Source: Escherichia coli (GTDB taxonomy: Bacteria > Pseudomonadota > Gammaproteobacteria > Enterobacterales > Enterobacteriaceae). Taken from it: a stretch of 64,000 bases of DNA. The stretch lies in NCBI RefSeq assembly GCF_044324785.1, contig NZ_CP172127.1. The stretch is one strand, 5' to 3'. Positions 58,859 to 59,872 of this stretch are shown piece by piece (positions within the stretch are counted from its first letter, which is position 1; every line of letters begins with the position of its first letter). The position numbers and the translations under genes were made by a program. Under the pieces are notes generated by a model, which did not search any database, was not told the DNA's origin, and saw only the letters and a program-made list of their open reading frames with translations.

Positions 58859-59872
58859 ATGGATGAGAAGCTAAAACATGCGGATTTATCGTCTTTGCCA
58901 GAGCAGGTGAGGGTTGCCGCTAGGGAGCTTGTTGACCTGAAGTTTCGTATCGATATGGCAGCAAGAGGCGGTACGTCAGGGATACCACTTGACCTGCATG
59001 GGAGGATGACAGGAGGAGAATGGGGGCCGCATTGCGGGCTGGAATTTTTCTGCAGCATCATTCCTTTTTTCCCGCGAGATTTTGAAACCTGTTCAGTAAC
59101 TGAAATGTTGGTTCCTACCTTACATACCTTCGGCTGCAACTGGCGTTGGTGGCCCGATCGTTATTGTAGCGACAAAGATGAACACTATATACGGCGTCAC
59201 ATTTTTTCTGATTACGGGCTGAAAAGTACGAGCTATACCTTCATTCCTCAGTTGGGATTGTTCTGCCCGAGTGAAGGTAAAAATCGTGTTAACTTCTGCC
59301 GCCATCACGGTATCGAATATATCCCCGCACAGGTTTATTCCCATGATTACCCAGAAGCAAATCGAATCTCTGTGTACGTTCAGGATACTGCCGGAGGGCT
59401 GGATGTGTGGGCCGTTCTTGATAATCGCTATGTTCAGAAGGTTACTCACTATGCCTTTGCGCTCCCACTTTTGTGCGCTTATGGGGTAGAGTTCCCAGGT
59501 AAGTGGCCAGCAGGATGGCCATCGATATCGGACCTCCTGGCTAATCAACTGTGTTGCACTGATGACACAACCTTTCATAAACCCGTGATCGATATGCAAG
59601 CTGTCAGGGATACGCTGGATCGTGATGAGAACAGCAGAGAGGATGGGGAGATGTATGTCAAAACCAATGTGGTTGAGCTGCCGCTGGCCGGGCTGGTTCG
59701 CTTCATTCTGATCGCAATGTTACTGAGTTTAGGTGCGTTGTTCATCCACGAGGTACTGGATGAGGGAAGCCTGTCCAGGATTGCACTGGGAATAAGCACT
59801 TTCACGGCTGGCGTGGTTGCTTCGTTTTTTATCCCAGCGTTCCGTATCAAGAAAAAATATCTTCGCAAATAG
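58859..59872 (+). CDS. Hypothetical protein with Cys/Trp-rich soluble domain and two C-terminal TM helices
   Basis: 337-aa ORF; no recognisable motif; weak SD. Confidence 0.5.
   Translation: MDEKLKHADLSSLPEQVRVAARELVDLKFRIDMAARGGTSGIPLDLHGRMTGGEWGPHCGLEFFCSIIPFFPRDFETCSVTEMLVPTLHTFGCNWRWWPDRYCSDKDEHYIRRHIFSDYGLKSTSYTFIPQLGLFCPSEGKNRVNFCRHHGIEYIPAQVYSHDYPEANRISVYVQDTAGGLDVWAVLDNRYVQKVTHYAFALPLLCAYGVEFPGKWPAGWPSISDLLANQLCCTDDTTFHKPVIDMQAVRDTLDRDENSREDGEMYVKTNVVELPLAGLVRFILIAMLLSLGALFIHEVLDEGSLSRIALGISTFTAGVVASFFIPAFRIKKKYLRK

Follow-up and report, generated by a model that had tools for sequence, protein, structure and literature searches.

An uncharacterised protein family of conjugative plasmids and integrative and conjugative elements with a C-terminal membrane anchor and a predicted ParB/sulfiredoxin-like core

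The DNA analysed here, referred to as the window, is a 64,000-nucleotide stretch of an Escherichia coli contig (NZ_CP172127.1). Near its right end lies a gene for a 337-amino-acid protein that is annotated only as hypothetical. This open reading frame (ORF) is a real, intact, full-length member of an uncharacterised protein family. The family is restricted to conjugative plasmids and integrative and conjugative elements (ICEs) of Proteobacteria, where it is an accessory gene. Structure models indicate that residues 80 to 161, approximately, probably adopt a divergent ParB/sulfiredoxin (Srx) nucleotide-binding fold. The protein may be a membrane-tethered, nucleoside triphosphate (NTP)-dependent enzyme with a ParB/Srx core that acts in plasmid/ICE conflict or transfer, a reading to which we give about even weight. 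The copy in the window is probably orphaned.

Protein family, predicted fold and membrane anchor

The protein contains 10 Cys and 7 Trp residues, and its Kyte-Doolittle peaks are centred near residues 278-292 and 316-319. The sequence-only reading of this DNA had described a 337-residue ORF with a double C-terminal transmembrane (TM) segment and a Cys/Trp-rich domain; coordinates, composition, hydropathy and an AlphaFold model bear this out. Compared with its 92%-identical Enterobacter plasmid orthologue, the ORF has a ratio of non-synonymous to synonymous substitution rates (dN/dS) of 0.25; taken separately, the soluble part gives 0.21 and the TM part 0.32. This ratio, together with the 325 clusters that match the family profile, shows that the ORF is a real gene and not a chance reading frame.

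A word-indexed search returned 47 clusters from Enterobacterales and Aeromonas, all labelled hypothetical and without Pfam domains. Beta-proteobacterial and Pseudomonas members were added by a profile search. HMMER, run exhaustively over 1.84 billion representatives, gave 325 clusters (50% identity) at E ≤ 0.001, of which 129 passed E ≤ 1e-30. The matched clusters are almost all 330 to 380 amino acids long and cover the profile from about residue 10 to about residue 335. Since homologues of this length match from end to end, the ORF is not a fragment, and the refuting possibility named in the sequence-only reading, derivation from a larger disrupted gene, falls away. The 337-residue query has no match in Pfam, NCBIfam, PADLOC, PHROGs or the PDB sequences. 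A profile search of the PDB with the family alignment gave a single spurious match to a ribosomal protein, and a Pfam scan of 38 family members at E ≤ 10 gave no family match, with noise in the TM region only. No domain fusions were found in longer family members, and no literature was found on four family accession numbers. The family is unannotated and unstudied.

Conservation was assessed in an alignment (A3) of 24 sequences with identities down to 24%. Residues K28, D32, F63, P69, F70, P86, G92, E139, G140, N142, R143, and R148 are invariant, as are seven positions further downstream described below. A family signature is recognisable where the sequence-only reading had found no motif. It has the general form E-G-K-N-R-[VI]-x-F-x-R and is carried by 77 of 78 clusters. 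The relaxed form [ED]G[KRQM][NHQST]R is present in 101 of 107 full-length representatives, including ten with EGKHR and one with DGKQR. The acidic and basic residues K28, D32, E139, K141, N142, R143, and R148 form a cluster of a kind typical for a phosphoryl- or nucleotide-handling site.

No Cys is invariant in A3, and C147 is replaced by F or L in the Pseudomonas and beta-proteobacterial members. The 107 full-length representatives have a median of 5 Cys residues (range 1-11). With no invariant Cys and counts this variable, the Cys-richness is incidental and not a family trait, and the Cys conservation that the sequence-only reading had proposed as a check is absent. A metal or disulfide motif was rejected on the absence of any invariant Cys in A3.

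AlphaFold2 (AF2) was run with the 38-sequence family alignment as input. The model has a mean pLDDT of 82.2 and a pTM of 0.70; the other model has a pLDDT of 85.5 and a pTM of 0.84. Secondary structure assigned by DSSP to the AF2 models gives the predicted core a strand (80-86), a conserved loop (HTxGCSWRWWPD), a helix (105-122), two strands (125-129 and 134-137), the loop SEGKNR, a helix (144-149), and a final strand (154-161, YIPAQVYS). The predicted order of strand, loop, helix, strand, strand, [EG-x-x-R] helix, and strand (IPAxV) equals the order in the ParB N-domain. The EGKNR loop corresponds in position to ParB Box II (GERRxR), to the GGCHR loop of Srx, and to the DGMTR loop of Osa. In ParB-superfamily proteins, the [D]GxxR loop makes contact with the nucleotide at its beta and gamma phosphates (PMC12065111). 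The 11 representatives with EGKHR or DGKQR coincide with the classical DGxHR/DGQQR forms. After the 154-161 strand, the model places beta strands at 170-194, where ParB has the Box III helix and a helix-turn-helix (HTH). The remaining invariant residues of A3 (Y164, P203, Y208, G209, W216, P217, and P221) lie in a family-specific subdomain that follows the core.

A Foldseek search of the PDB with the full-length model returned ParB/Srx-fold proteins for nearly all of the top 25 matches. These are human and plant Srx, pNOB8 ParB-N, PadC, Noc, and ParB, followed lower down by KorB, free serine kinase (SerK), and Atu1540. The E-values of 0.02-0.3, with probabilities up to 0.93, are grey-zone scores, and only 70-90 residues are aligned. 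Two independent structure-comparison methods place the ParB/Srx superfamily on top, with many distinct members. The check for remote homology that the sequence-only reading had proposed gave grey-zone similarity in predicted structure and none in sequence.

The protein has no N-terminal signal sequence, and its C-terminal tail (RIKKKYLRK) contains six K/R and no D/E residues. Given this basic tail and the acidic loop between the two TM helices, the positive-inside rule predicts an N-in/C-in hairpin with the large domain in the cytoplasm. A hydrophobic C-terminus is found in 101 of the 107 full-length representatives (94%), and the hairpin is also present in Pseudomonas homologues at 29-32% identity. 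Identity is about 23% in the TM region versus 43-65% in the soluble domain, and the hairpin evolves like a plain anchor. A clade from Aeromonas (about 276 amino acids) lacks the hairpin and keeps the soluble domain. In four of six members of this clade, the C-terminal 14-mer is among the seven most amphipathic windows of its protein, a pattern that is only suggestive of peripheral membrane binding. Because the TM sequence is poorly conserved and is dispensable in the Aeromonas clade, pore formation of the abortive-infection (Abi) type is disfavoured as the core activity.

Genomic contexts and proposed function

A tblastn search found the family on 78 of 72,556 plasmids, of which 52 are typed as conjugative and 9 as mobilizable. 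The hosts are Pseudomonas (35), Aeromonas (15), Burkholderia (10), Serratia (7), Cupriavidus (4), Vibrio (3), and others. A search of 50,697 phage and prophage-derived records found no member. Among 5,426 complete E. coli genomes, 8 carry the gene, and the ICE context is the same in each.

On IncI-type (MOBP, Dot/Icm-like) plasmids of Enterobacter and Serratia, nikA, the relaxase gene, and the family gene follow one another on the same strand, with a gap of about 26-27 nucleotides before the family gene. In at least four such plasmids, the nikA-nikB (relaxase) operon has the family gene in third place. This operon is convergent with genes for a PLD nuclease (nuc), trbC, trbB, trbA, and excA. 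Orthologues with 92, 82, 54, and 46% identity to the window protein keep this synteny, which matches the published IncI1 layout of convergent nikAB and trbABC (PMC8125031). Some Enterobacter plasmids also carry, downstream of the homologue, a 334-amino-acid protein (L011 9121-10125) whose core weakly resembles PemK/MazF toxins (Pfam E 3e-4) and that has a long coiled-coil tail and no obvious antitoxin neighbour.

Outside this operon, the family gene is found in regions for maintenance or establishment. Serratia plasmids show a second arrangement composed of parG-parA, a tyrosine recombinase, a variable slot, the family gene, rpn, and DUF2913. The slot holds a TIR-like 291-amino-acid protein (PADLOC TIR effector, E 4e-10), a nucleotidyltransferase with a SLATT protein, or a DUF4145 protein. 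The frame is constant while the defence-like cargo changes (L003 7036-7911; L031 4066-5995; L015 7122-7850), and the slot is a small defence hotspot. On a Salmonella ICE, the family gene is divergent from a TraI_2 relaxase and adjoins ArdC and antirestriction genes. An N6-methylase and an antirestriction gene precede it in Burkholderia, and in beta-proteobacterial elements it belongs to a co-directional array that continues with umuDC, dnaN, and PRTRC genes. Further contexts were sampled on P. syringae pPT23A-type plasmids, pQBR57, and pAsa4.

The upstream neighbours differ by lineage and include TIR-like, DUF4145, GIY-YIG, LuxR-type, and small clade-specific proteins. The tyrosine recombinases found next to the family gene are not orthologous. 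A two-gene system was rejected, as no partner is conserved across lineages. One beta-proteobacterial clade has a 122-amino-acid protein with an N-terminal hydrophobic segment whose gene overlaps the start of the homologue by 14 nucleotides (L028 6595-6963; L034 7646-8014; 81% identical between the two elements). This protein may be a clade-specific partner, absent from Enterobacterales.

In the proposed mechanism, the N-terminal 260 residues or so would face the cytoplasm, and the C-terminal two-helix hairpin would tether the protein to the inner membrane. The invariant E-G-K-N-R...R loop would be placed where ParB, Srx, and Osa bind nucleotide phosphates. Binding or hydrolysis of NTP by the ParB/Srx core would gate a nuclease or phosphotransfer activity on DNA or nucleoprotein on the cytoplasmic side of the membrane, most plausibly at the type IV secretion/coupling-protein machinery. 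The role would be inter-plasmid interference or transfer control, as for Osa. An Osa-like or transfer-linked role is our best single guess by analogy, and a tentative one. It draws on three observations: on IncI-type plasmids the gene is co-transcribed with the relaxase gene, it converges on the operon of the coupling protein, and its product has a membrane tether. A bolder version, which we think unlikely, is that the family forms a second class of membrane ParB/Srx enzymes, unrelated to Osa in sequence, that conjugative plasmids and ICEs would use to police DNA traffic at the channel of the type IV secretion system (T4SS). Co-expressed with the relaxase of its own element, an NTP-gated nuclease or phosphotransferase would sit permanently beside the coupling protein and either degrade or block the transfer intermediates of rival plasmids, or incoming DNA.

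Several results weigh against a ParB/Srx-core enzyme of conflict or transfer. Alignment of the family by hhalign with four ParB N-domains and human Srx is negative (probability <1%), as is alignment of A3 with R388 Osa and with a seven-member Osa alignment (probability <0.1%). Pfam ParBc (PF02195) is matched by neither the query nor the 38 members at E ≤ 10, no HTH or other DNA-binding module was recognised in the Pfam scan, and there is no Box III. The 72,556 plasmids searched by tblastn contain no Escherichia or Salmonella match; classical IncI1 plasmids lack the gene, which is therefore accessory and not needed for conjugation. The nikB/trbC junction might be no more than a hotspot for cargo, and in many other contexts the family gene lies away from transfer genes. 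The soluble domain may also be a new fold or enzyme class, with structural matches that stem from a widespread small alpha/beta motif and a chance G-x-x-R loop. We regard this as possible, if doubtful, given the agreement of two structure-comparison methods on many distinct members of the ParB/Srx superfamily, the matching order of elements and position of the invariant loop, and the occurrence of the EGKHR and DGKQR variants.

Two other roles were considered for the protein. As a single-gene anti-phage or Abi effector, it would use a cytoplasmic sensor to trigger membrane damage through its two TM helices upon infection. The gene has no conserved partner, and that part of the single-gene proposal made in the sequence-only reading stands; the argument from a defence island at the window locus does not, as the copy there is a stranded plasmid fragment. 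The type III restriction-modification (R-M) system and toxin-antitoxin (TA) remnants beside the gene suggest defence, yet this context is the product of an IS3-associated capture (IS, insertion sequence). The Serratia slot, with its TIR-like, nucleotidyltransferase and SLATT, or DUF4145 cargo, borders the gene, and a sensor joined to two TM helices recalls Abi effectors as they are generally known. However, PADLOC-DB v2 has no matching family at E ≤ 10, the phage and prophage-derived records lack the family, and the positions where the gene recurs and is conserved are in the plasmid/ICE backbone, inside a relaxase operon. The Aeromonas clade keeps the soluble domain without TM helices, and the TM sequence is barely conserved. 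An Abi effector is thus quite improbable in our judgement. The protein could instead be an establishment or anti-defence factor of the leading-region type that acts early in the recipient, like ArdA, ArdC, PsiB, or the ParB-like HerB/YfjB. In several elements it is co-directional with ArdA, ArdC, KlcA-type antirestriction genes, orphan N6-methylases, PsiA/B, UmuDC, and PRTRC genes, and ParB-like CTPases are known leading-region proteins (PMC13370423). Against this, the IncI-type gene lies downstream of nikB, on what would be, given the transfer polarity of IncI and F plasmids, the last-entering side of the origin of transfer. A membrane hairpin would be unusual for an antirestriction protein, and Pfam and NCBIfam scans show no sequence relation to the Ard, Psi, or HerB families. 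We give an establishment role a low probability.

The copy in the window

The window is part of a PAPI-1/SPI-7-type ICE with dnaB-PI, ParB, TIGR037xx ICE genes, a type IVb pilus, a shufflon, and TraF. Within it, positions 58804-59882 are 93.5% identical to an Enterobacter asburiae IncI-type plasmid (NZ_CP134640; L029 8944-10024, blastn). The match runs from the 3' end of the relaxase gene (31 nucleotides) to 10 nucleotides past the stop codon of the 337-residue gene. The relaxase remnant reads ...GTACCGCCCGGGCCCAATATTAAGAACTAA. The Shine-Dalgarno sequence of the plasmid, GGAGGTGG, is degraded to GGGACG in the spacer of the window. From these comparisons, the window copy is a 1.08-kb fragment of an IncI-type plasmid captured beside an IS3 remnant in the cargo region of the ICE, with its native operon promoter missing and its ribosome-binding site weakened. 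Table 1 lists the features.

Table 1. Features of the captured fragment, its flanks, and the 337-residue protein
Feature	Position in window	Strand	Basis
IS3-family transposase, internal fragment; abuts the plasmid fragment	58653..58808	+	NZ_CP033635 annotation (L001 12054-12209, offset 46599)
MOBP relaxase (nikB/traI) 3' remnant, ...VPPGPNIKN, stop TAA at 58832-58834; left edge of the fragment	58804..58834	+	blastn
24-nt spacer between relaxase remnant and gene	58835..58858	+	sequence comparison
Coding sequence, 337 aa plus stop, ATG start	58859..59872	+	annotated "hypothetical protein" WP_000343645.1
Predicted ParB/Srx-like core, residues 80-161	59096..59341	+	AF2 models
Family signature E139-G140-K141-N142-R143-V-N-F-C-R148, putative phosphate-binding loop	59273..59302	+	conservation in A3
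Family-specific beta-rich subdomain and helices, residues 162-262	59342..59644	+	no informative structural match
TM helix 1, residues 276-299	59684..59755	+	AlphaFold, hydropathy
TM helix 2, residues 304-327; predicted hairpin with TM helix 1 via a short acidic loop	59768..59839	+	AlphaFold, hydropathy
K/R-rich tail RIKKKYLRK, predicted cytoplasmic	59840..59869	+	positive-inside rule
Frameshifted higB (RelE/ParE) pseudogene; annotated start overlaps the last codons of the gene	59857..60142	+	annotation

In the E. coli sequence NZ_CP033635, the stretch with the gene is 100% identical and the protein is annotated as a hypothetical protein (WP_000343645.1). There the gene is flanked on the left by the internal IS3 fragment and on the right by the frameshifted higB, an IS3 remnant, and a higA pseudogene. 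The mod gene of the type III mod/res pair is divergent from the 337-residue gene (mod ATG at 58367, minus strand). The sequence-only reading was therefore accurate in placing the gene between a type III R-M system and TA/IS debris. As the copy is a stranded plasmid fragment beside an IS3 remnant, this adjacency is accidental and uninformative on function.

The gene may be a silent or decaying passenger without a current function in this ICE, which is compatible with the other readings and to which we give somewhat less than even weight. The native promoter and the relaxase gene have been lost and the Shine-Dalgarno sequence is degraded; few complete E. coli genomes have the gene, and its neighbours higB, higA, and IS3 are all pseudogenes. 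A truncated 228-amino-acid E. coli allele (P0006) exists, and two E. coli alleles differ by five non-synonymous changes and about one synonymous change, counts that are compatible with relaxed constraint and too small for a test. On the other side, the ORF is intact in all eight genomes at 99-100% identity, and read-through from upstream is possible. A promoter and terminator scan did no better than on shuffled sequence, and Rfam found no RNA family in positions 58000-61000.

A relaxase-3'/gene junction has survived rearrangement in a second, independent case, on an Enterobacter-type contig (L012). Here a 122-amino-acid "gene" upstream of the homologue (7606-7974) is a C-terminal relaxase remnant (...HVPPKPNIKN) that is fused behind the leading-region genes ArdA, PsiB, PsiA, and an N6-methyltransferase.

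The ICE of the window and that of NZ_CP033635 (strain ECCNB12-2) are 95-99.7% identical in blocks and are not collinear base for base. The left 20 kb of the window differs by several indels or replaced segments, and only 58450-64000 maps at a constant offset. In NZ_CP033635 the ICE adjoins kpsF and a tRNA-Ser gene. At about 43916-44179 (plus strand), the window carries a type-B (zinc-independent, YkgM-like) paralogue of ribosomal protein L31 as ICE cargo.

The type III R-M system is preceded by a perfect (GTTGC)n tract of 30.6 copies at 58425-58577, 58 nucleotides upstream of the mod ATG. The tract varies in length: in E. coli 2015C-3121, a related ICE carries 19.6 copies. An 87-amino-acid ORF (58581..58318, minus strand) reads through the tract as (RNATQ)n. 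Because an in-frame stop separates the repeat from the ATG, the tract lies in the promoter or 5' untranslated region, outside the mod ORF. It may provide phase-variable control of this E. coli type III R-M system.

Related systems and significance

Osa is a ParB/Srx-fold ATPase/DNase and fertility inhibitor of IncW plasmids that targets the coupling-protein step (PMC8744291, PMC5696584). Its homologues occur in RP4 and ICEHin1056 (PMC5696584, PMC8744291). Like the Osa/FiwA/ICE1056Fin group (PF22162; R388 Osa is 189 amino acids), the family described here consists of accessory genes that move rapidly and are carried by conjugative plasmids and ICEs. It would share with Osa a small ParB/Srx-fold core, as modelled, with a [D/E]-G-x-x-R loop (DGMTR in Osa) and no HTH. 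Unlike Osa, with which it has no sequence or profile similarity, it is about 150 amino acids longer and has an extra beta-rich subdomain and an integral TM hairpin. Osa is itself said to be located at the inner membrane, a finding attributed to Chen and Kado in 1996. Membership in PF22162 was rejected on the Pfam scan and hhalign.

Noc would share with the family a ParB-type nucleotide-binding fold (structures 7ol9, 7nfu, and 7ng0 are among the matches to the model) and an association with the membrane. Noc binds the membrane peripherally, in a CTP-dependent manner, by an N-terminal amphipathic helix, and it has an HTH domain and Boxes I-III. The anchor of the family is instead a constitutive C-terminal hairpin, and the HTH and Box III are absent. 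Canonical ParB/Noc/KorB membership was rejected, as there is no HTH or Box III (ENLQRE) and hhalign is negative. Srx and PadC are minimal ParB/Srx-fold nucleotide binders. Srx is a soluble eukaryotic and cyanobacterial enzyme for ATP-dependent peroxiredoxin repair with a catalytic Cys in its loop, whereas the family has no Cys in the equivalent loop and gives no hhalign match to Srx.

HerB/YfjB, KorB, and BisD are plasmid- or ICE-encoded proteins of the ParB superfamily with non-partition roles (PMC13370423), and the family would resemble them in this respect if the modelled fold is correct. They can be recognised as homologues of ParB/RepB/Spo0J, have HTH and dimerisation domains, and act as DNA clamps, whereas the family lacks these features and is membrane-bound. 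Namtar and Attar are monogenic transmembrane systems of anti-plasmid immunity that sense T4SS components (bioRxiv 10.64898/2026.07.06.735840). Like them, the family is a stand-alone membrane protein without known domains in a setting of conjugative-element conflict. It was set apart from Namtar/Attar by their description: five TM helices, assignment to other families, and a chromosomal location in recipients, versus two C-terminal TM helices and a plasmid-borne gene.

The window copy carries a lesson for annotation: capture mediated by an IS can make a gene look, misleadingly, like part of a defence island. If the proposed reading is true, an unannotated family of 325 clusters, found on conjugative elements only, pairs a nucleotide switch of the ParB/Srx type with an integral membrane anchor. 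To our knowledge, this architecture has not been described previously. It would extend the range of non-partition ParB-fold switches, which includes Noc, KorB, BisD, HerB, and Osa. For interference between plasmids or the control of transfer, the family would then be a new candidate, with a bearing on the spread of resistance plasmids.

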